From NCBI GenBank assembly GCA_964434845.1, contig CAYSWT010000006.1, positions 1 through 38,792 of the forward strand: DNA of 38,792 nt. Reading direction: 5' to 3'. Made by a program: the position numbers and the translations under genes. The notes beneath the pieces are model-generated. The model was not told where the DNA came from. It saw only the letters and a list, made by a program, of their open reading frames with translations, and made no database searches. The DNA is from an uncultured Atribacterota bacterium. Lineage in GTDB: Bacteria > Atribacterota > Atribacteria > Atribacterales > Atribacteraceae. Below are positions 1 through 38,792 of this stretch, piece after piece (the first letter of the stretch is position 1; the number at the start of each line of letters is the position of its first letter).

Positions 1-97
1 CTTTACAACTCAACACCTCAACCTCTCAACAACTCAACATTTTGGTGTTTTCATCCTCATATGGTGCCACAACGTGGCATGGCGGTCTATTATCCAG
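1..97 (-). repeat. Copy 1 (truncated by the window edge, reverse orientation) of the intergenic structured repeat family. Tandem CTCAACnn octamers at 6..37, core complement ggcatggcggtctattatcc at 76..95.
   Basis: Reverse complement of 8..96 aligns almost base-for-base with 38566..38652 (GGATA.TAGACCgCCATGCC ACGTTGTGGC ACCATaTGAGgATGaAAACACCAAAATGTTGAG...). Lies just 3' of the nrdJ stop. Confidence 0.8.
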
Positions 98-166
98 ATA
101 TGGAGGTTTATTCATTTATTTTTTTTCTCTTTTCATTATTCCAGTCTTTCCCCGTAGATTGAGTTT

Positions 167-4662: not shown

Positions 4663-5594
4663 TGATTATCCTCCACTCCAAACTTGCGTAAAAGATGCAT
4701 ATAATCTCGAGAATATATTACCTTGATTTTTATCTGAGGGTAAAGTTCCCGAAGTCTTCTCACTTTTCGGTTTTTTTTCCTGACTAATTTTTGTCTCTGG
4801 GTGGTGAGTTCGATAAACAGATCAAAATCGGGAAGATAGAAATCTGGGGAGAAGGCTTCAATAACATTCCCCTCATTATCCCATTCCAAAGGAAAAGTGC
4901 GGGGCTCATAAAGCCATTTTATACGGTAAAAATCAAGAATGCGAGCAAATTCTTCCTCAGAAGGATGAACAAAATCCACCCGGTTCCCTCCAAAATCAAG
5001 ATTGGGAAAAAGTGGTTGTTGTTCTCCCTTTCCGAGCGATGGCACTCCAATATTTGCCATTGCTTCCAGAATAATGTGACAAGCCCGATCAACCGAATAA
5101 TAAGCGGTATTCAAAACCAGGTTGTACATCATGGGGTTTTTCCAATCAGCTCCTAATGTTTCTAACAGGAACTTTTCCCTTTTCCGATCCAGTTCGGATA
5201 ATATATGAGAAGCCGTCACTTCATCCTGATGGTATTTTTCCATGATTCTTTTCAACCGGACTTCCGGCGAAGAGACGATTAACAAGTGAAAAGTACGGAC
5301 ATCATTTTGAAAGATGGTTTGGCCACCCCGACCAAGAAAGATGATAGGTCGCTTTTTTATCTGTTTGTAAACGATCTCACGAACCGCTTTCGCCCAGATG
5401 AGAAATTTAACTCGATCAATATTTTCATCCAGATCGTCATGCCCTGATTCATGGAGGAATTGTGCTAATTGGTCACGATCAATGAGTTGATAATTTAAAA
5501 GTTGAGAGAGTTTTTCCGCAATCTCATCACCGAGGCTTTCGGTTTCGCGGGAAAGAGTAATAATTGATACCTTTTCCACTGAACGCTCCACCAA
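4659..5594 (-). CDS. Cytidylate-kinase-like family protein (AAA/NMP-kinase fold) with an uncharacterised ~110-aa C-terminal extension
   Basis: N-terminal VSIITLSRETESLGDEIAEKLSQLLNYQLIDRD resembles the cytidylate kinase-like family. The C-terminal part (…FSPDFYLPDFDLFIELTTQRQK…) is unrecognised. Confidence 0.5.
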   Translation of the reverse strand: MVERSVEKVSIITLSRETESLGDEIAEKLSQLLNYQLIDRDQLAQFLHESGHDDLDENIDRVKFLIWAKAVREIVYKQIKKRPIIFLGRGGQTIFQNDVRTFHLLIVSSPEVRLKRIMEKYHQDEVTASHILSELDRKREKFLLETLGADWKNPMMYNLVLNTAYYSVDRACHIILEAMANIGVPSLGKGEQQPLFPNLDFGGNRVDFVHPSEEEFARILDFYRIKWLYEPRTFPLEWDNEGNVIEAFSPDFYLPDFDLFIELTTQRQKLVRKKNRKVRRLRELYPQIKIKVIYSRDYMHLLRKFGVEDNQ

Positions 5595-9290: not shown

Positions 9291-10016
9291 CTAATCTTCA
9301 CCTAAATACGCTTTTCGAACTTTTTCATCAAACAGTAACGCTTTCCCTTCGCCACTCGTAGAGATTCTCCCTGTTTCCATTACATAGGCAAAGTCAGAGA
9401 TTTCTAAAGCACCCCGAGCGTTTTGCTCGATGAGAAGAATAGTTGTTCCTTCTTGATTGATTTTCTCAATAATATGGAAAATTTCTCGAACCAGTAGCGG
9501 TGCTAAACCCAACGAAGGTTCATCCATCATCAACAATTGGGGACGTGACATAAGGGCACGACCCACTGCCAGCATTTGTTGCTCTCCACCACTGAGTGTT
9601 CCCCCTTTTTGCCAGGTTCTTTCTTTCAGTCGCGGAAATATGGTGAAAACCCAATCCATATCTTTTTTAATTTGATCAAAGTCTTTTCGAATATAGCACC
9701 CAAGAATAAGATTTTCCATAACAGTTAAATTAGGAAAAATTCTTCGTCCTTCTGGGACCATGGCAATCCCCATGCCCACAATGAGGTGGGCGGGAAGACC
9801 TGCAATAGGATGCCCATTAAATGTAATTGCCCCCTGTCGGGGATGAATAAGCCCGGAAACAGTTCTCAAAGTGGTACTTTTCCCTGCTCCATTGGCACCA
9901 ATCAGTGATACAATTTTTTTCTTTTCGACATTCAAACTGATTCCCTTCAGGGCATGTATTCCTCCATAATAAACATGAAGATTCTCTATTTTCAGTACGA
10001 TGTGGTCGTTGTTCAT
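9291..10016 (-). CDS. livF: Branched-chain amino acid ABC transporter ATP-binding protein LivF
   Basis: Walker A GANGAGKST. LSGGEQQML signature. 241 aa. Confidence 0.9.
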   Translation of the reverse strand: MNNDHIVLKIENLHVYYGGIHALKGISLNVEKKKIVSLIGANGAGKSTTLRTVSGLIHPRQGAITFNGHPIAGLPAHLIVGMGIAMVPEGRRIFPNLTVMENLILGCYIRKDFDQIKKDMDWVFTIFPRLKERTWQKGGTLSGGEQQMLAVGRALMSRPQLLMMDEPSLGLAPLLVREIFHIIEKINQEGTTILLIEQNARGALEISDFAYVMETGRISTSGEGKALLFDEKVRKAYLGED

Positions 10017-10796
10017 TTAACTTTCCACTCCCAGATAAGCCTCAATAACTTTTGGGTTTTTTCGTATATTACTTGGTGTGCCTTCGGCAATTTTTATCCC
10101 GAAATCCATCACCGCCACATTTTCACAGATCCCCATAACCACCTTCATGTCGTGTTCGATAAGAAAAATGGTCAAGTTGAACTCTTCTCGAATCTTTTGA
10201 ATAAAATTCATAAGATCCATGGTTTCGTGGGGGTTCATCCCTGCTGCTGGTTCATCTAACAACAAAAGTTTTGGATGAATTGCCAAGGCACGGGCAATTT
10301 CTAATCTTCTCTGTTGACCATAGGGAAGACTCTTGGCTTCCTCTCGAGAAAGTTCTGCCAATCCCACAGCTTCGAGCAATCGATATCCCTCTTCTCTCAT
10401 GGCTTTTTCCGCTGAAACATAGGCAGGACTTCTCCACATAGCACCGAGAAAAGAATTTTTTAAACCCATATGAAACGAAACCATGACATTGTCCAATACC
10501 GAAAGGTTTCCAAACAGACGAATATTTTGAAAGGTTCGGGATATACCGAGCGATGTGATCTCATGGGGAGGAAGACCATTGAGAATGTGGTTCAAAAAAA
10601 CGACCTTCCCTTTAGATGGAATATATTGCCCGGTAATCATATTAAAAATGGTGGTTTTTCCAGCGCCATTCGGTCCAATCAAACCCGCCAAATCACCGGA
10701 CTGTAGGGAAAAATTAAAATCATTCACCGCGATCAACCCTCCAAAAATCATGGTAAGTCCGTTTATAGAAAGGAGGGTTTGTGTCTGCTCATTCAT
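10017..10796 (-). CDS. livG: Branched-chain amino acid ABC transporter ATP-binding protein LivG
   Basis: Walker A GPNGAGKTT. LPYGQQRRLEIARAL signature. LivG-type C-terminal extension. Confidence 0.9.
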   Translation of the reverse strand: MNEQTQTLLSINGLTMIFGGLIAVNDFNFSLQSGDLAGLIGPNGAGKTTIFNMITGQYIPSKGKVVFLNHILNGLPPHEITSLGISRTFQNIRLFGNLSVLDNVMVSFHMGLKNSFLGAMWRSPAYVSAEKAMREEGYRLLEAVGLAELSREEAKSLPYGQQRRLEIARALAIHPKLLLLDEPAAGMNPHETMDLMNFIQKIREEFNLTIFLIEHDMKVVMGICENVAVMDFGIKIAEGTPSNIRKNPKVIEAYLGVES

Positions 10797-14019: not shown

Positions 14020-14197
14020 TTCAAAATTTGTATAAAAGTATCACCTCAATGAGATTCTTGTCAAGGATAATGTGTTTAAAAAGAGGCAAGAACCAATAAT
14101 TTTTCCGTCAACTGAGGATCGACCAATAAACCCTCTCTTGTTTCCCCTGCTGATGAATTGACAGAGTATTCACACAGATTCATAATATGCAAATAAA

Positions 14198-14293
14198 TAG
14201 ACATTCATGCCCATGGTTATTGCTCCTTGAAAGTAGGTTGAGTTTTCATCTTTCAGATGGTGCCAAGGTGTTTTCCTGGCATGAATGTCTATA
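14198..14293 (-). repeat. Copy 2 of the structured repeat family (MITE-like, 15-bp perfect terminal inverted repeats ATAGACATTCATGCC / GGCATGAATGTCTAT)
   Basis: TIRs at 14198-14212 and 14279-14293. Core ACCATCTGAAAGATGAAAACTCAACC present in reverse orientation. Sits in the divergent livK / flavodoxin promoter region. Confidence 0.8.
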
Positions 14294-14336
14294 AAGTGGT
14301 TGAGAAAAGGATAAATTTCATGGAGGATAAAGAATC

Positions 14337-21308: not shown

Positions 21309-23468
21309 CTATTGATACTCTTTATACGTCCCCGGAATAATTTGGTCTTTCTGACATTCAAACTCTGCCCAGAGTCGACCGTCTTCATACCATTTTTTCC
21401 ACTTTCCATCTCTCTGATTGTCTCGGTAATATCCTTCTGATTCCTTATTTCCATTGCGGTAGTATTTCGTCCATAGGCCTTCTTTTTTATCGTTCTGATA
21501 GGTTCCCTTTTGACCGATAACACCGTTTTCATACCAGGATATCCAGGTTCCTACTTTTTTTCCATTTTGATATTCACCTTCGGTCTTTTTCTTGCCATTT
21601 TCAAACCAGGTGGTTTCAATGCCATTTTTCAACCAGGTGCCATCGAGACGAATGATATAGGTATATTGAATTTTGAGCTTTCCATTCGCATACTTTTCCC
21701 GGTAGGTCTGCACCGCCTGATCAGAAGAAACCGGGTTTATTTCAGGAGATGGCATGATGGATGTTTTGATTGTAACCATCATTTTTTGCATAGCAATCAT
21801 TTCCCCCGAACTTATATCAAAAACTTTAACGGTTAATTCAAATTTTCCCGGCTTGCTATATATGTGCTTCATTTCCCCTTCGCTGCTGTCGGTGACCTTC
21901 GATCCGTCTCCGAAATTCCACAGATATTTAATCGCTTTCACCGTATCCGGAAAATTTCCCAGTGACGCTTTAAAGATATATTCTTCTTCGGTTTTTCCAT
22001 TATCGAGCGCTGAAGGTTCAAGAGACAACGCTGGAGTCTCGATTGCCGGGGAAGAAGAGACCGTATCGGTTCCTAAAAGATTGAACATTCCGCTCATAAC
22101 CTCACCCTGAAGCAATCTTTCCTTGTTATCAAACAGTTGGAGTTGTTCGAGGTCGAGATCAGATTGGGTGATCCCTTTCGGTTCTTTCAAAACTTGAAAT
22201 TTGACTACAGCAATGGTGCCACTTTCTTTGGTTAACATTTGATGATTCGCCTGGATAATGGCTATGCTGACTCGGCCGGGTTCAAGAATTTTAGCGCTGG
22301 TGAGCCACTCGGCATTGATTTCACCATGGACTATGCCTAAATATTCCAGGAGATTGGGATCAAAGGAAAACACCATTTCCGCCCGTATCATTTTTTGGTA
22401 TCCGTTAAAATGGATTGGAATATCAATGATATCTTGAGGTTTACCCCCCACAAACGGCAGTGAGAACATCGACACCGGTAGTGGGACGATAGTTGTAAAG
22501 GAAAAAACCAGGGTTTCCATGAGAGGGTTGCCGGTTGAGTCTTTCAATGATCCAAGAGGAAGGACCACTTGATAAATCGTGTCCGGGTTGAGATCATTCT
22601 TCGGTTTGAGAGTCAATTCTTTATTCTGAATTCCTTTCTCAATTGCAATCAGTTTTTGATTGGCATCCTGTACTGTTATAAAATCGTAAGCATTCCCGGG
22701 ATAAATGGTTTCATTGAATTGTATGCGAATGGTCGTGTTCAGTGGTATTTCGATCGCTCCGGAACTGGGTTCGGTGGTCACTACCATAGGAGGTTCAGTA
22801 TCGACCGGTTCAAGGGAAGGCAGCGGAGTAAGGATTGGTAATTGATCGATGATTGGAGTCTGGAGGGGAACGATGAGGATATCAGACAGGGTTGGAATCA
22901 ACGTAGGGCTGGGAGATGGAAGCGCAGTGACCACTTGACCCATACCCGGCAGAGTTGGGGCAACCGGTTCGGTTTCCGGGAAAGATGGCAGGATATCAAT
23001 CGTTGTTGATGACAAAGGGATGGGGCTCTCCTGGGATTGGATGGAAGGTGTCAGTGAGGCTTTCACCAATATTGGTTCGCTCACTGCCACTTCCGGATAA
23101 GTGTCGTCATCACTCGGGAAAAGACGAAATTCGTAGAATCCAGGAACTTCAGGCATGAGAAAAGTCATATTCCCAGCAGGAGAACGGTTTAAATATTGAT
23201 AATCGATGTCTTTTTTATCAGCAATCTTTTGATCACCTCGGGGAGTATCGGCTGGAATCAAACCGATCCAGGCGTCTGAACTCCATTCTGGAGAAGCAAT
23301 ATAGGAAACGACGACTTCTTGACCAGGCGCAGTTTCAGAGGTCGATGCAGTAATCGTGTACGGCGCTGCAGCATGATTCTGGGCGTAAACGACACCAACA
23401 CTGAAAAGCATCCAGAGAATCAACCAGAATAAGAACCATTTAATACCACTGAGATGATATTTTCCCAT
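21309..23468 (-). CDS. Secreted multidomain surface protein (Ig-like domains, PKD domain, C-terminal MORN-variant/YwqK-like repeats)
   Basis: Signal peptide. PKD-like WNFGDGS…KPGKFELTVKVFD. Repeated GxW/Y…YxNGKK…G motifs at the C-terminus typical of MORN-variant repeats. Confidence 0.65.
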   Translation of the reverse strand: MGKYHLSGIKWFLFWLILWMLFSVGVVYAQNHAAAPYTITASTSETAPGQEVVVSYIASPEWSSDAWIGLIPADTPRGDQKIADKKDIDYQYLNRSPAGNMTFLMPEVPGFYEFRLFPSDDDTYPEVAVSEPILVKASLTPSIQSQESPIPLSSTTIDILPSFPETEPVAPTLPGMGQVVTALPSPSPTLIPTLSDILIVPLQTPIIDQLPILTPLPSLEPVDTEPPMVVTTEPSSGAIEIPLNTTIRIQFNETIYPGNAYDFITVQDANQKLIAIEKGIQNKELTLKPKNDLNPDTIYQVVLPLGSLKDSTGNPLMETLVFSFTTIVPLPVSMFSLPFVGGKPQDIIDIPIHFNGYQKMIRAEMVFSFDPNLLEYLGIVHGEINAEWLTSAKILEPGRVSIAIIQANHQMLTKESGTIAVVKFQVLKEPKGITQSDLDLEQLQLFDNKERLLQGEVMSGMFNLLGTDTVSSSPAIETPALSLEPSALDNGKTEEEYIFKASLGNFPDTVKAIKYLWNFGDGSKVTDSSEGEMKHIYSKPGKFELTVKVFDISSGEMIAMQKMMVTIKTSIMPSPEINPVSSDQAVQTYREKYANGKLKIQYTYIIRLDGTWLKNGIETTWFENGKKKTEGEYQNGKKVGTWISWYENGVIGQKGTYQNDKKEGLWTKYYRNGNKESEGYYRDNQRDGKWKKWYEDGRLWAEFECQKDQIIPGTYKEYQ

Positions 23469-23530
23469 CGTTTTTTTCCTTCCTTTTTAATATATATACC
23501 ATTTGGTAAACTGTGAACGGTTAATCTCAT

Positions 23531-23627
23531 CTTTTCATCCATTCCAACTCAACATCTCAACATTCTTACAATAAATATTTTTCATCCTCTGCTGGTGCAA
23601 GGGTATTCATCTGGCATGAATGTCTAT
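23531..23627 (-). repeat. Copy 3 of the structured repeat family (reverse orientation)
   Basis: GGCATGAATGTCTAT (23614-23627) is identical to an arm of copy 2. CTCAAC repeats at 23545-23562. GGATGAAAA complement at 23531-23540 and 23581-23590. Confidence 0.7.
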
Positions 23628-23727
23628 TTTCCATTTATTGCATACAAATATAATACCAATGAATAGATTGAGCAAACAGTATATAATACGATATGATGAG
23701 AAAAATAAATAAAGGAGGTGCAAAGGT

Positions 23728-24096
23728 GTGCCAAACTATATTGAGCCCGTTGAAGAACTCTCCAGTCACGATCGTGACATTCACCGAACTCTCAATAGTC
23801 TAAAAGAAGAGATTGATGCCGTTGAATGGTATCACCAACGAGCTGTGACCACCACCGACATCGATATGAAAGCCATTTTAGTACACAACTTAGAAGAAGA
23901 AATCGAACACGCTTGTATGCTTTTAGAATGGCTCCGTCGGAATATGCCCGGCTGGGATGAACGCTTAAAGATATATTTATTTACCGCCCAATCCATAACT
24001 GCTATTGAAGATCACGCTCCAACCGATTCATCAGAACCAAAAGAACGTTCTTTGGATGATTTGGGAATCGGGAATCTAAAAAATATTTCTCTCTAA
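23728..24096 (+). CDS. Encapsulated ferritin-like protein (EncFtn) cargo with C-terminal encapsulin targeting peptide
   Basis: GTG start with AAAGGAGG RBS. Close match to EncFtn: …AVEWYHQRA…ILVHNLEEEIEHACMLLEWLRRN…YLFT…ITAIE. C-terminal SLDDLGIGNLK matches the GSLxIGxLK cargo-loading peptide. Confidence 0.85.
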   Translation: MPNYIEPVEELSSHDRDIHRTLNSLKEEIDAVEWYHQRAVTTTDIDMKAILVHNLEEEIEHACMLLEWLRRNMPGWDERLKIYLFTAQSITAIEDHAPTDSSEPKERSLDDLGIGNLKNISL

Positions 24097-24163
24097 TACC
24101 AGCATAATCAAATGTCTATCCGTTTGTTGATCGATTCAGTGTTGAATCGGAAAGGGGGATTGT

Positions 24164-24967
24164 ATGAATATTTTAAAACGGGAGTTATCTCCGATAACCA
24201 ACCAAGCCTGGCAGGAGATTGATCGTCAGGCCAAAAGAATATTCCTCACTCAACTCACCGGACGGCGCTTTGTTGAAGTGATTGGACCAAAAGGGTGGGA
24301 TTTTGCCGCTGTGGGATTAGGGCGAATAAATGTTCCGGAAAACCAACGGGATGGAGACGTTCGTTTTGGAATCCATATGGTTCAACCATTAGTCGAAATT
24401 CGAACCTCTTTTCAACTTGATCTGTGGGAATTGGATAATATTACCCGGGGAGCAACCGATATCGATTTTACTCCTCTGATTGACGCTGCCAAACAAACAG
24501 CTCTATTCGAAGAAAAAGCCATTTATCATGGGTTCGAACCGGGAGATATCGATGGGCTTCTTCCGGTGCTTGAATATGAACCCCTTCCCTTCTCCCATGA
24601 CCCGGGGGAGTTTTTCGGTAGCGTGTTAGAAGCGGTTGCCGTTTTAAACGACGCCTCGGTTACCGGTCCTTATGCTTTGGTGATAAACCCACTTCTCTGG
24701 GCTGATCTAGCGGCAACAAAAAGTGGCTATCCATTAAAGAAACTCATCGAAAGCACGATCGAAGGTCAAATCATTCCGGCATCAGTACTGGAAGATGCAT
24801 TAATCGTGTCAACCCGGGGCGGCGATTTTGAATTGATACTCGGTCATGATCTATCGATCGGATACGAAAGCCATGACGATAAATACGTTAACCTTTATTT
24901 TACAGAATCCTTCACTTTTCGCATCCTCGATCCTTCAGTGTTTGTCCGTTTGAGTGTAAGTGATTAG
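24164..24967 (+). CDS. Family 1 encapsulin nanocompartment shell protein (linocin M18-like, HK97 fold)
   Basis: 267 aa. MNILKRELSPITNQAWQEIDRQAK…TQLTGRRFVEV.GPKGWDFAA…TSFQLDLWELDN…GPYALVINP…GGDFELILGHDLSIGYE is collinear with Thermotoga-type encapsulin. Confidence 0.9.
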   Translation: MNILKRELSPITNQAWQEIDRQAKRIFLTQLTGRRFVEVIGPKGWDFAAVGLGRINVPENQRDGDVRFGIHMVQPLVEIRTSFQLDLWELDNITRGATDIDFTPLIDAAKQTALFEEKAIYHGFEPGDIDGLLPVLEYEPLPFSHDPGEFFGSVLEAVAVLNDASVTGPYALVINPLLWADLAATKSGYPLKKLIESTIEGQIIPASVLEDALIVSTRGGDFELILGHDLSIGYESHDDKYVNLYFTESFTFRILDPSVFVRLSVSD

Positions 24968-28453: not shown

Positions 28454-28509
28454 TTTTCCACCTCCTTGCTGAAACATTAATTCTCCACCATTAAGATGAT
28501 CCTCAATAT

Positions 28510-28585
28510 GGATCGACCGCCATGCTGCTTGGCAGCACCATGTGAGGAATGAAAATCAAATGAGCCACATGCCATGGCATGTGGC
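28510..28585 (+). repeat. Copy 4 of the structured repeat family, plus a 22-nt perfect palindrome
   Basis: GGATCGACCGCCATGC-TGCTTGGCAGC-ACCATGTGAGGAATGAAAATC, then GCCACATGCCATGGCATGTGGC (28564-28585). Confidence 0.75.
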
Positions 28586-37369: not shown

Positions 37370-38323
37370 TCAATCCAGTTGTTTTTTTAAATATCGTAAT
37401 GATTCACGCATCATCCTCTCGAGCAGATTGTCAGTATAATCTCTCCCCAACTTAGGTCCGGGAAGCTCCAAATAACCAATCACCGGAGAAACCGGGATGA
37501 TATCCTGATTGTCCAAAAGCAGTGTGTGGATTTTTTTCACATCGACAATACCTCGGTCAAGGTTTTCCGATTCAAATCCAAAAGTGTCATTATAGATCTT
37601 ATCAGTATTTTTAAAATGAAATTCATACATATAAGGGAAAGAAGCAGTGAAGTAGTGCATATTATTCTCAATGATCTCTTTCTTTTCATTCACCCATCCA
37701 TGGGAAACATCCGAACAATACCCGAATTGAGTTGTACTTTCTGGATGGGAATGGTGATGTTCTACCAATTCGTCGGCGATCATTTTTAATTCTGTTGTGT
37801 TGCAAGGAGGTTCGGCATAACACGACATCGGCTCCATGGTAAGCCAGGATAAACCATGCTCTTTCGCATAATACATCATCTCTTTCATGCCTTCAATATA
37901 GGCTTGTATCCCCTGACTCCGAAACTCGAGACGATCGCGTAAAACACCACCCATCGATGAACCGGCAGCCGGACATCTCAATATCTGAGCAATTTCTATC
38001 AAACGCCGGTAATTCTTAATCGTGATTTGGGAAAATTCAGGATCTTCAGTCATAAAACCACCAAGTTCTCGATGAGAAGTAAAAATACTGGATATTTGAA
38101 TACTCCTGGAATCTGCCGCTTCTTTCAAGCGTAAAAAATAGGAATCGGATAGAAAATAAAACTCGACAAAAGTTCCTAATTGGAGATAATGAATGCGTTC
38201 TTCCGCCATGAGGTCGAACAACCATTCAAATGAATACCGGTAATGAATGGGATCGCTTTTTACTCCTAACTCAACAATTAGATTTTTATTGGATCGTGAA
38301 CGGCTATTATTCATCGGTATCAT
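37370..38323 (-). CDS. Xylose isomerase-like TIM-barrel protein (sugar phosphate isomerase/epimerase family)
   Basis: 317 aa. Conserved His/Glu/Asp pattern (…WLTMEP…, …HHHSHPE…, …SDVSHGW…) consistent with the AP-endonuclease-2/xylose-isomerase-like fold. Confidence 0.55.
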   Translation of the reverse strand: MIPMNNSRSRSNKNLIVELGVKSDPIHYRYSFEWLFDLMAEERIHYLQLGTFVEFYFLSDSYFLRLKEAADSRSIQISSIFTSHRELGGFMTEDPEFSQITIKNYRRLIEIAQILRCPAAGSSMGGVLRDRLEFRSQGIQAYIEGMKEMMYYAKEHGLSWLTMEPMSCYAEPPCNTTELKMIADELVEHHHSHPESTTQFGYCSDVSHGWVNEKKEIIENNMHYFTASFPYMYEFHFKNTDKIYNDTFGFESENLDRGIVDVKKIHTLLLDNQDIIPVSPVIGYLELPGPKLGRDYTDNLLERMMRESLRYLKKQLD

Positions 38324-38563
38324 CCATTTCCTAATCTATAGTAAAAACACATCCGATAGCATAAACATCATTCAATTTTTAGTGATCAGATGTTTTTTGT
38401 CAACCTCGGTTCAAATGTTTTATTGAAAGAAAAATTCCCAACCAGAGCATTCCATGTGAATTATTTCTTGTAACAAAAGCATAAAAATTCATATTGGATG
38501 GAAAAAGAATGTGGAAGGTTGCTAAATAGTAAACTTTTTACATTTTACTTTTCACTGTATTTT

Positions 38564-38652
38564 CAGGATAGACCCTCATGCCACGTTGTGACACCATGTG
38601 AGTATGGAAACACCAAAATGTTGAGGTGTTGAGAGGTTGAGGTGTTGAGTTG
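38564..38652 (+). repeat. Copy 5 of the structured repeat family, with four tandem GTTGAGnn octamers (38620-38651)
   Basis: caGGATAGACCCTCATGCC-ACGTTGTGAC-ACCATGTGAGTATGGAAACACCAAAATGTTGAGGTGTTGAGAGGTTGAGGTGTTGAGTTGG. Near-identical to copy 1 (reverse complement) at the other end of the window. Confidence 0.85.
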
Positions 38653-38712
38653 GAAAAAAGCTAATGGAGAAAATTTTTTTACGACTCACTCCTCATGACT
38701 CACGGAATTTCC

Positions 38713-38775
38713 AGGATAGACCCTCATGCCGCATAGCGGCACTAGATGAGAATGAAAACTTTGAGGGTCTATCCT
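38713..38775 (+). repeat. Copy 6 of the structured repeat family: compact 63-bp version with 14-bp perfect terminal inverted repeats AGGATAGACCCTCA / TGAGGGTCTATCCT
   Basis: aGGATAGACCCTCATGCC-GCATAGCGGC-ACTAGATGAGAATGAAAACTT-TGAGGGTCTATCCt. Confidence 0.85.
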
Positions 38776-38792
38776 TTCAGTTTTAGTCTTTT

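Follow-up and report, generated by a model that had tools for sequence, protein, structure and literature searches.

Mosaic intergenic repeats are represented by the pneumococcal BOX (boxA-boxB(n)-boxC), the E. coli BIMEs, and the Neisseria NIMEs and Correia elements. Rows of short motifs are also found in the protein-titrating RNAs CsrB and RsmZ (GGA motifs) and CrcZ (A-rich), and in the triplet-repeat sites of TRAP and HutP, while on DNA the metboxes read by MetJ are operator arrays of the same kind as those of the ribbon-helix-helix proteins ParG and omega. ParG places one dimer on each ACTC box of the TP228 OF/parH sites, the boxes being separated by 4-bp spacers (PMC3130281), and omega/ParB-pSM needs at least 4 contiguous 7-bp repeats at the parS of pSM19035 (PMC9499535). 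In Porphyromonas gingivalis, the BrickBuilt element (a MITE, or miniature transposable element with inverted repeats) is composed of a leader, a tandem 23-nt minisatellite and a tail, lies between genes, and includes promoter elements (PMC4596501). Here we describe a tandem array of GTTGAG octamers, and the dispersed repeat which carries it, found in a stretch of 38,792 nucleotides from an uncultured Atribacterota bacterium (contig CAYSWT010000006.1, called the window in the following). The array is a strongly constrained, lineage-specific module of a high-copy repeat family not described before, and the architecture of this family is that of a mosaic intergenic repeat with an internal tandem module. 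Arrays are present in many copies, hexamers and phase are constrained, four units are preferred, unit number does not vary at orthologous sites, and the arrays face downstream genes.

Atribacterota are abundant in anoxic sediments and reservoirs, and almost uncultured; we know of no regulatory RNAs or DNA repeats described in them, and a literature search on Atribacteria repeats returned nothing relevant. An earlier inspection of the window, made on its letters alone and referred to here as the sequence-only reading, had listed six copies of a repeated core, with four tandem octamers at copies 5 and 1, two at copy 3 and none at copies 4 and 6. The six cores are exactly those matched by our covariance model, built from an alignment of 100 diverse copies, and the distribution of arrays among them was confirmed, including the perfect phase of the units at copies 5 and 1 and their absence from copies 4 and 6. 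Only the coordinates had to be shifted, being 1-2 bases out: the left-end array lies at 7-38 (-), not 6-37, and that of copy 3 at 23546-23561 (-), not 23545-23562. GTTGAG recurs in exact 8-nt phase at 38620/38628/38636/38644 (+), at 33-38/25-30/17-22/9-14 (-) and at 23556-23561/23548-23553 (-), and the same three arrays were detected independently, with a period of 8, by Tandem Repeats Finder, at 5-39 (4.4 copies), 38619-38649 (3.9) and 23548-23563 (2). The hexamer is found 30 times in the window, as compared to 16.3 +/- 4.2 in shuffled sequences, none of the 100 shuffles reaching 30; the excess corresponds to the 10 hexamers within arrays. The unit has the general form GTTGAGnn. Within the window the arrays start 8-24 nt from the core end, always on its 3' side, and those of copies 1 and 5 differ in the first spacer (TT in copy 1, GT in copy 5).

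Two GGTTGAG motifs had also been reported at copy 2. They are indeed present, at 14237-14243 and 14298-14304, on the strand opposite to the copy-2 core and outside the array position, and therefore read CTCAACC in the orientation of the core. Their inclusion in the system was rejected, as CTCAAC is not enriched around array-less cores: in the 60-nt flanks of 98 such cores it occurs once upstream and twice downstream, against about 3.5 expected per set from a background of about 0.036 per 60 nt. The two motifs are not homologous to the arrays, and are attributed to chance.

To define the population of arrays, a census was taken in 0.79 Mb of sequence from few samples of one habitat, made up of contigs containing window proteins and of stretches from a metagenome scan, whose pattern was the core 3' end with two perfect adjacent GTTGAG units (80 of 113 stretches were analysed). 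Units were defined as hexamers with at most one mismatch. The census gave 147 arrays, 116 of them distinct: 91 (78%) have exactly 4 units, 15 have 2, 9 have 3 and a single one has 5. The pitch is always exactly 8 nt, and the 2-, 3- and 5-unit forms, which correspond to whole units lost or gained in phase, are found only between paralogous copies. Most distinct arrays (106 out of 116) are found no more than 40 nt from the end of a core, in answer to the question, raised by the sequence-only reading, of whether arrays and core go together; a few adjoin other modules, or none, instead of the core (as in the census loci L173 and L204). The same reading had considered that the array might merely be part of one duplicated sequence, which does not hold, the population containing at least 116 distinct copies.

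Variation between strains, also proposed there on the assumption of a slippage-prone tract, was not supported by the data: unit number was the same at orthologous sites in all assemblies examined. This is true for the copy-5 and copy-3 sites (Table 1) and for the copy-1 site, where two loci (L002 and L005) are identical and a third, L006, has 4 units with spacer changes. The idea of an iteron-like binding array fared better, in that a real, non-random and constrained lattice is present; it is not, however, a classical replication iteron, because of its 8-nt period, the lack of a rep gene in the vicinity and the large number of chromosomal sites. Classical iterons are repeats of about 17-22 bp, or two helical turns, located by a rep gene or origin at one or few loci, while the arrays occupy 116 distinct chromosomal intergenic sites with no recurrent neighbour. 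Nor do they behave as phase-variable contingency loci, unit number being constant at orthologous sites and the arrays lying mostly outside open reading frames (ORFs), whereas a contingency tract is situated within an ORF or between the -35 and -10 elements of the gene it controls. The tandem, short-period organization, with unit numbers differing between paralogues, is what a strain-variable contingency tract or an iteron would also display; in view of unit numbers identical in up to 10 samples, of the 8-nt pitch in place of 17-22 bp, and of more than 100 chromosomal sites without a rep gene, we regard either as extremely unlikely.

Conservation is concentrated in the hexamers. In 88 four-unit arrays, only 8 of 2112 hexamer cells (0.4%) are off the majority base, a figure somewhat inflated by the scan, which demanded two perfect units. 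Spacers have 152 such cells out of 704; upstream of the array the nearest 10 nt have 151 out of 880, and downstream the nearest 30 nt have 762 out of 2640, so that spacers and flanks differ at 17-29% of cells in the same copies. Because of the inflation, the test was repeated on loci fetched through protein identity only. These motif-unselected loci contain 9 distinct arrays, in which 0 of 192 hexamer positions are mismatched; in the seven with four units, 0 of 24 hexamer columns vary, versus 6 of 8 spacer columns (Fisher p = 3e-5). Thus the hexamers are strongly constrained while the spacers drift, which is the pattern predicted by a row of binding sites.

The same is seen on a larger scale in two sub-families, which have diverged in core, linker and tail and share the four phased hexamers. 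Sub-family A features a short hairpin, the linker ACCAAAAT and a tail of the form GGAAAAGATAAAAAGATGAGATCC…; sub-family B, which includes window copies 2 and 3, a long hairpin, the linker ATATTTATTGTAAAGAT and a tail of the form GGAATGAATGAAAAGATGAGATTGCC…. Unit-specific spacers, such as AG after unit 2 in sub-family A, are kept, which means that the 32 nt of the array are inherited as one block, not homogenised by slippage. These findings bear on a neutral explanation, by which the array arose once by slippage and was carried along by a recently amplified repeat, its uniformity reflecting youth. In-phase variants with 2, 3 and 5 units do show that slippage or unequal exchange occurs, many copies are very similar overall, and octamer tandem repeats of any sequence are a common background in other genomes. 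In viral contigs, for instance, three GTTGAG octamers in a row were found in 44 cases, against 20, 32 and 33 for three control hexamers of the same composition, and hence the motif is not special outside the lineage of the window; these viral arrays (L092-L135) have 3-8 units, none is associated with a core, and some recur with the same flanks in several contigs. A young and neutral repeat does not account for hexamers and spacers evolving so differently within the same copies, for sub-families diverged everywhere but in the hexamers, or for the persistence of the AG spacer of unit 2. This explanation, already disfavoured, is in our opinion very unlikely, and the array appears to be an internal module, maintained by selection, of a mosaic intergenic repeat specific to this lineage.

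Arrays are intergenic and in phase with no ORF: 109 of the 116 lie outside ORFs of at least 100 amino acids, with a median distance of about 370 nt to the start of the downstream gene. Position and direction were derived from ORF calls made by a crude longest-ORF heuristic. With this definition, the downstream gene is co-oriented with the array-bearing unit in 44 cases and opposed in 10; in co-directional intergenic regions the unit points toward the downstream gene in 21 cases versus 4, and only 2 units lie between convergent genes. When all cores are considered, including array-less ones and those of other species, the bias is weaker (102 versus 52, and 41 versus 29 in co-directional regions). 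A protein-coding role was rejected, given TGA in all three frames of the array strand, indels of 8, 16 and 24 nt corresponding to whole units, and covariation in the core hairpin; that stops in all three frames are themselves the function of the array has a very low probability. The reverse strand is open, as CTCAAC provides no stop codon in any frame, and this is why gene callers place ORFs of 71-75 amino acids across core and array (10011-10226 (-) in L002, 2824-3051 (-) in L005). Whole-unit indels and hairpin covariation argue that these ORFs are spurious.

The coordinates of cores, arrays and adjoining modules in the window are collected in Table 1.

Table 1. Repeat modules located in the window. 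Copies are numbered from left to right.
Feature	Position	Strand	Sequence or composition	Evidence or remark
Octamer array, copy 1	7..38	-	GTTGAGTT GTTGAGAG GTTGAGGT GTTGAGTT, 4 units	Tandem Repeats Finder and orthologues
Core, copy 1	47..100	-		Covariance model, 62.4 bits
Core, copy 2	14242..14302	-	Sub-family B, no array	Covariance model
Tail of copy 3	23469..23545	-	Leads to extended -10-like TGGTATATA, ribosome-binding site, start of 719-aa gene (21309-23468, -)	
Two-unit array, copy 3	23546..23561	-	GTTGAGAT GTTGAGTT, sub-family B	2 units in 5/5 assemblies holding the site
Core, copy 3	23578..23637	-	Sub-family B, longer hairpin	Covariance model, 34.7 bits
Core, copy 4	28502..28555	+	No array	Covariance model
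Promoter-like X box before copy 5	38537..38571	+	TTTACA, 15 nt, TATTTT, then CAGGATAG; TTTTACN heptamers	
Core, copy 5	38558..38611	+	…CAGGATAGACC-CTCATGC-hairpin-CACCATGTGAGTATGGAAAC	Covariance model, 66.7 bits
Linker, core to array, copy 5	38612..38619	+	ACCAAAAT	Conserved in sub-family A
Octamer array, copy 5	38620..38651	+	GTTGAGGT GTTGAGAG GTTGAGGT GTTGAGTT, 4 units	Same sequence in 11 assemblies (10 samples and the window)
Tail of copy 5	38652..38705	+	GGAAAAAA…TTTTTTT, then heptamers ACGACTC/ACTCCTC/ATGACTC, into next promoter-like box	
Core, copy 6	38706..38759	+	No array	Covariance model, 71.4 bits

A full unit consists, in this order, of a promoter-like box (…GGTATTTYCAGGATAG), the core, a short linker, four hexamers, and a tail, in which a second hairpin and a run rich in T are found; further 7-8-nt tandem arrays usually follow, and then a promoter-like box facing the downstream gene. 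The core, about 55 nt long, has the consensus (A)GGATAGACC-NN-CATGC-[hairpin]-GCACCA-NNTGAG-N-ATGRAAAY. Its inner 5-bp hairpin is paired in 93.6% of cells in the 100 aligned copies, above all shuffles and slid controls, with double changes in 4 of the 5 pairs, one of which is almost evenly divided between U-A (46) and C-G (45). This is the only solid helix of the core: the outer stem P1 (68.5% paired), P3 (67.8%) and S0, the stem joining the upstream box, called X here, to the core 3' end (70%), do not show convincing covariation. In S0, GGTATTTCCA of the X box is complementary to TGGAAACACC at the core 3' end in that same fraction of cells. The segments GGATAGACC, GCACCA and ATGRAAA flank the hairpin as conserved single strands. 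No Rfam 15 family reached the gathering threshold in the window, and the 1.36-kb repeat cluster gave only chance-level miRNA-like matches at E up to 10. Two known structures were considered for the repeat and rejected: a hammerhead-like CAGAUGAG…GAAAC in the core has no stem II between the boxes, and the spacing of copies is irregular, with recurring "spacers", unlike in CRISPRs. The ends of the window form an 89-nt inverted repeat, because both fall in copies of the dispersed repeat.

Some cores bear other palindromic surroundings. A perfect 22-nt palindrome, GCCACATGCCATGGCATGTGGC, lies at 28564-28585, 9 nt past copy 4, and modules of this kind (GACATGCCATGGCATGTC) are found 3' of cores in other Atribacter species. 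Copies 2 and 6 may be described as "closed", the 5' end of the core being repeated in inverted orientation on its 3' side to give an enclosing stem of 13-15 bp (14197-14211 with 14278-14292 at copy 2; 13 bp, 38714-38726 with 38762-38774, at copy 6); at copy 6 a T-rich run follows.

Downstream of the array, the commonest tail contains AAGATGAGAT, CACGCC and a hairpin, with a T-rich run after it. Compensatory changes distinguish variants of the tail hairpin (ACGCTTGG/CCAAGCGT versus AGCCTTGG/CCAAGGCT). The tail is followed by a junction motif, CATCTTACGCCGTAGGCTG, and by other 7-8-nt tandem arrays, built on ACGACTC, on CAAATCAA/CAGTTCAA (reverse complement GTTGATTT/GTTGAACT), on CACAATTC or on TTTTACN, which abut a -10-like box. 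The heptamers of copy 5 are partly complementary to the array, and RNA folding pairs them with array units 3-4 (z = -1.95); in a consensus RNA fold of 43 array-bearing units, the array pairs with nothing consistently. Phased heptamers occur in the window at 38681-38701 (+), and further strictly phased families, (CACAATTC/CACAGTTC)n and (TGTGGAAT)n, are found in the same mosaics (L146, L148, L153, L185, L192 and L182, among others). L182, which comes from a different sample, consists nearly entirely of phased arrays, including GTTGAGTT GGGGAGTT GTTGAGTT GTTGAGTT. Overall, the core has at least 5 alternative 3' modules, and at least 5 tails, and sometimes other modules, are found joined to the array.

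The X box, (T/C)GGTATTTYCAGGATAG, is itself built on 7-8-nt tandem repeats, and either abuts the next core, the 5' boundary of which coincides with the ATAG of X, or precedes a gene. A ribosome-binding site and start codon follow it at 16-126 nt in 26 cases, and in two loci (L071 and L158) the box lies just upstream of an RNase P RNA gene and of a tRNA gene. Degenerate versions keep TGGTAT(A/T), an extended -10-like sequence, as at copy 3. Boxes of this type were recorded in the window at 38537-38571 (+) and 38706-38719 (+), and in L009, L154, L149, L186, L071 and L158. X is probably a promoter or a fragment of one, and looks like a dispersed promoter module, a view that is only moderately supported. 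Out of 235 cores, 99 (42%) have no X box and no conserved -10 upstream.

If X is a promoter, the stretch from X through core and array to the tail might be a small RNA or a segment of a 5' or 3' untranslated region, with the core as structured handle, and the array would work at the RNA level: four unpaired, C-poor GUUGAG motifs could titrate an RNA-binding protein, as in CsrB/RsmZ and CrcZ, or serve as a repeated seed against RNAs containing CUCAAC. Strong covariation of the core hairpin is in line with this idea, as are the coincidence of the core 5' boundary with the ATAG ending X, the X boxes preceding RNase P RNA and tRNA genes, the compensatory changes in the tail hairpin with its T-rich run, and the directional bias of units relative to genes; the array, moreover, is predicted as unpaired in the consensus fold as well as in single units, the copy-5 type of tail being the exception. 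It is less easily reconciled with the cores that have neither X box nor conserved -10, and with a T-run that begins about 6 nt past the tail hairpin, where no terminator was called. Rfam offers no matching family, no enrichment of CTCAAC targets was seen around other members of the family, lattices with spacers of exactly constant length are more typical of duplex DNA, and, to our knowledge, no bacterial RNA-binding protein reads a lattice of 6+2 nt. On balance we consider a role of this kind rather unlikely, although it is the strongest competitor of the DNA-level reading given below. A stronger version, in which each unit would be transcribed independently and the resulting small RNAs, tens to hundreds per genome, would form a large family with a shared structured 5' handle and a GUUGAG titration platform, is unlikely; if true, a deep-branching, uncultured phylum would have massively multiplied a sponge of the CsrB/RsmZ type, whose motif would be new and whose lattice would be rigid at 8 nt.

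The repeat was then followed across genomes. A scan for the core by exact pattern, with one genome per species, gave at least 75 loci, some of them obvious chance matches. Most are from Candidatus Atribacter hydrocarboniphilus, A. alterifermentans, A. fermentans and other metagenome-assembled genomes (MAGs) of Atribacteria, often at contig ends, and the matches listed also include a few Bacillota (Carbobacillus, Alicyclobacillus, Desulfotomaculum). In the other core-bearing species among these matches, the 3' modules are different and never GTTGAG arrays. Several Atribacter species have many copies of the core; in Bacillota MAGs and Alicyclobacillus fodiniaquatilis the copies are few, sometimes arranged as tandem units of 61 nt immediately upstream of a ribosome-binding site. 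In A. fodiniaquatilis (L075, 2160-2320) one core is flanked by 41-nt direct repeats in which the X box is included; its neighbours are a truncated sporulation-sigma-factor-like ORF on one side and a membrane-protein gene on the other, with a large serine recombinase 1 kb off, in a context reminiscent of a skin element. BLAST of the right-end unit against plasmid and phage collections gave no match, and tblastn of the window proteins found no orthologues in the fetched Atribacter loci.

The copy-1 site provides a view of how the repeat may move. Here the core begins 66 nt, and the array 128 nt, past the stop of a B12-dependent ribonucleotide reductase (RNR) gene (167-2218, -), whose best named relatives, 66-74% identical, belong to Candidatus Atribacteria, Caldatribacterium and Atribacterota MAGs. 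In a sister species with RNR 73-74% identical and upstream synteny kept, only 24-31 nt separate the RNR gene from a convergent ABC-2 transporter gene (L339-L345, around 5047-5077), and neither core nor array was found in the 8-kb loci around RNR. Copy 1 is therefore an insertion, or a rearrangement joint, of the window's lineage, in which the repeat is present downstream of RNR and synteny is broken. At the orthologous site of L001 (12129-12280) the same core is followed by a G+C-rich palindromic module, CCCCTCACC…GGGGCGAGG, and by no GTTGAG module, which points to modules having been exchanged 3' of the core between strains. Upstream of the orthologue of 37370-38323, three assemblies (L007, L008 and L009) share copies 5 and 6, and then continue into different units and flanking genes; this divergence is either real structural variation or the result of chimeric assembly at repeats. 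Contigs end inside repeats at both ends of the window (1-100 and 38558-38792), in L003 and L004, and in many of L017-L091.

Such mobility might suggest that the lattice is a cis-acting site for the spread of the repeat, a set of sub-terminal sites for a recombinase or transposase, with only intact copies propagating. The empty site in the sister species, the module swap between L001 and L002, the divergence of assemblies inside repeat clusters where contigs also end, the occurrence of the core in some Bacillota, and the arrays joined to modules other than the core (L173, L204) may all be interpreted in this sense. Yet no transposase or recombinase recurs beside the more than 250 copies, it was not possible to define terminal inverted repeats or a target duplication, the array lies inside the unit and not at its ends, and chimeric assembly at repeats could mimic structural variation. 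We judge this explanation quite unlikely.

The reading that we put first, tentatively and by analogy with known lattices, is that the array is a row of four cooperative protein-binding sites on duplex DNA. Four identical recognition sites would be coated cooperatively by a small, oligomeric, sequence-specific protein, and such binding would tie many promoter-proximal copies into one regulatory or architectural network; protein binding, DNA rather than RNA as the target, and an effect on transcription are what we infer. A DNA target is suggested by the rigid 8-nt pitch with a 6+2 read-out, by the 42% of cores having neither X nor a conserved promoter, by the sister 7-8-mer arrays lying, in either orientation, directly against a -10-like box, and by the close formal match to ribbon-helix-helix lattices. 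The reading as a whole also draws on the constraint of the hexamers, kept in both sub-families, on the preference for four units, on the orientation of units toward downstream genes and on the viral controls.

Several observations weigh against this reading. Arrays always share the strand of a core, and the covariation of the core hairpin suggests a single-stranded function of that neighbouring module, which leaves room for a role in RNA. No candidate binder emerged, and no small gene recurs beside arrays: clustering of the 413 ORFs within 1.2 kb of cores returned only housekeeping, ABC-transporter and LacI-type families. Distances from the array to the nearest promoter-like box range from about 55 to 140 nt according to tail type, a spread not usual for a simple operator; among X boxes without a core after them, only about half are within 150 nt of a gene start; and a consensus promoter and terminator scan of the repeat cluster found no site on the unit strand matching the X box or tail. 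The motif-unselected subset is small (9 arrays), and the larger one carries the inflation already mentioned. Finally, hexamer conservation could reflect a need of the repeat for its own propagation and not a host function.

Near copy 3, an encapsulated-ferritin-like gene followed by an encapsulin (Linocin_M18) gene was identified by Pfam matches at 23728-24967 (+); the pair diverges from the gene which has copy 3 upstream.

In practical terms, a high-copy modular repeat family is defined here, with a covarying hairpin core and a lineage-specific four-site lattice, located preferentially upstream of genes. Should a protein coat the lattices, more than 100 promoter-proximal sites would be brought into one network, whether regulatory, architectural or related to mobility, and the GTTGAG motif offers a handle, as oligonucleotide bait, for fishing out such a protein. 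As the repeats end contigs, they may also create chimeric joins in metagenome assemblies of Atribacterota.

Among known systems, the RNAs CsrB/RsmZ and CrcZ and the TRAP and HutP sites share with the units described here a repeated short motif in a stretch otherwise without structure, preceded by a structured 5' part and followed by a 3' hairpin. The motif, however, is GUUGAG, with no GGA inside the units, whereas a CsrB/RsmZ-type sponge has multiple GGA motifs, most of them in hairpin loops, and four GAG triplets 5 nt apart differ from the 9-11 (G/U)AG triplets, 2-3 nt apart, of a TRAP site. CsrB, CrcZ and TRAP sites, moreover, are associated with one or two genes, whereas our units are found in many copies.

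The resemblance to BOX, BIME, NIME and Correia elements is more extensive: modular sub-repeats, intergenic clusters, hairpin modules, an internal module of variable number, the occasional presence of promoters and the association with rearrangement break-points are common to all. Likewise, the family described here has many intergenic copies assembled from recombining modules, with 2, 3, 4 or 5 sub-repeats among paralogues. We found no sequence similarity to those elements; the strictly phased 7-8-nt arrays set the present family apart, and, while BIMEs and REPs favour the 3' ends of genes, its units are biased toward downstream genes. BrickBuilt is likewise species-restricted and provided with an internal tandem sub-repeat, and its copies are without exception intergenic, no more than a few hundred nt from genes, but it has a 23-nt unit without spacers, inverted-repeat ends and 19 copies (PMC4596501). 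Here the unit is 8 nt long (6+2), four units are present in 78% of arrays, copies are more than 100 and no inverted ends could be defined; in place of the BrickBuilt leader there is a covarying hairpin core shared with other phyla.

For the array itself, the closest match is given by the ribbon-helix-helix operator and centromere arrays, which it would resemble in function, as an analogue rather than a demonstrated member of the group. In both, short non-palindromic motifs are arranged as contiguous direct repeats with a 7-8-bp pitch, a conserved core and a free spacer, and the four GTTGAG hexamers at an exact 8-nt pitch, with variable spacers, agree with the rows of at least 2-4 motifs of 4-8 bp that characterize such arrays. 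Ribbon-helix-helix arrays bind one dimer per repeat cooperatively, about four repeats being needed for full activity (PMC3130281, PMC9499535). Their position overlaps that of promoters, and in our repeats arrays of a similar kind, with 7-8-nt units, lie directly against a -10-like box. No adjacent cognate gene or par operon with an overlapping promoter accompanies the GTTGAG motif, and no small gene recurs near the arrays. While the known arrays occupy one or few plasmid sites, the one described here is present in tens to hundreds of chromosomal copies, within a dispersed repeat.

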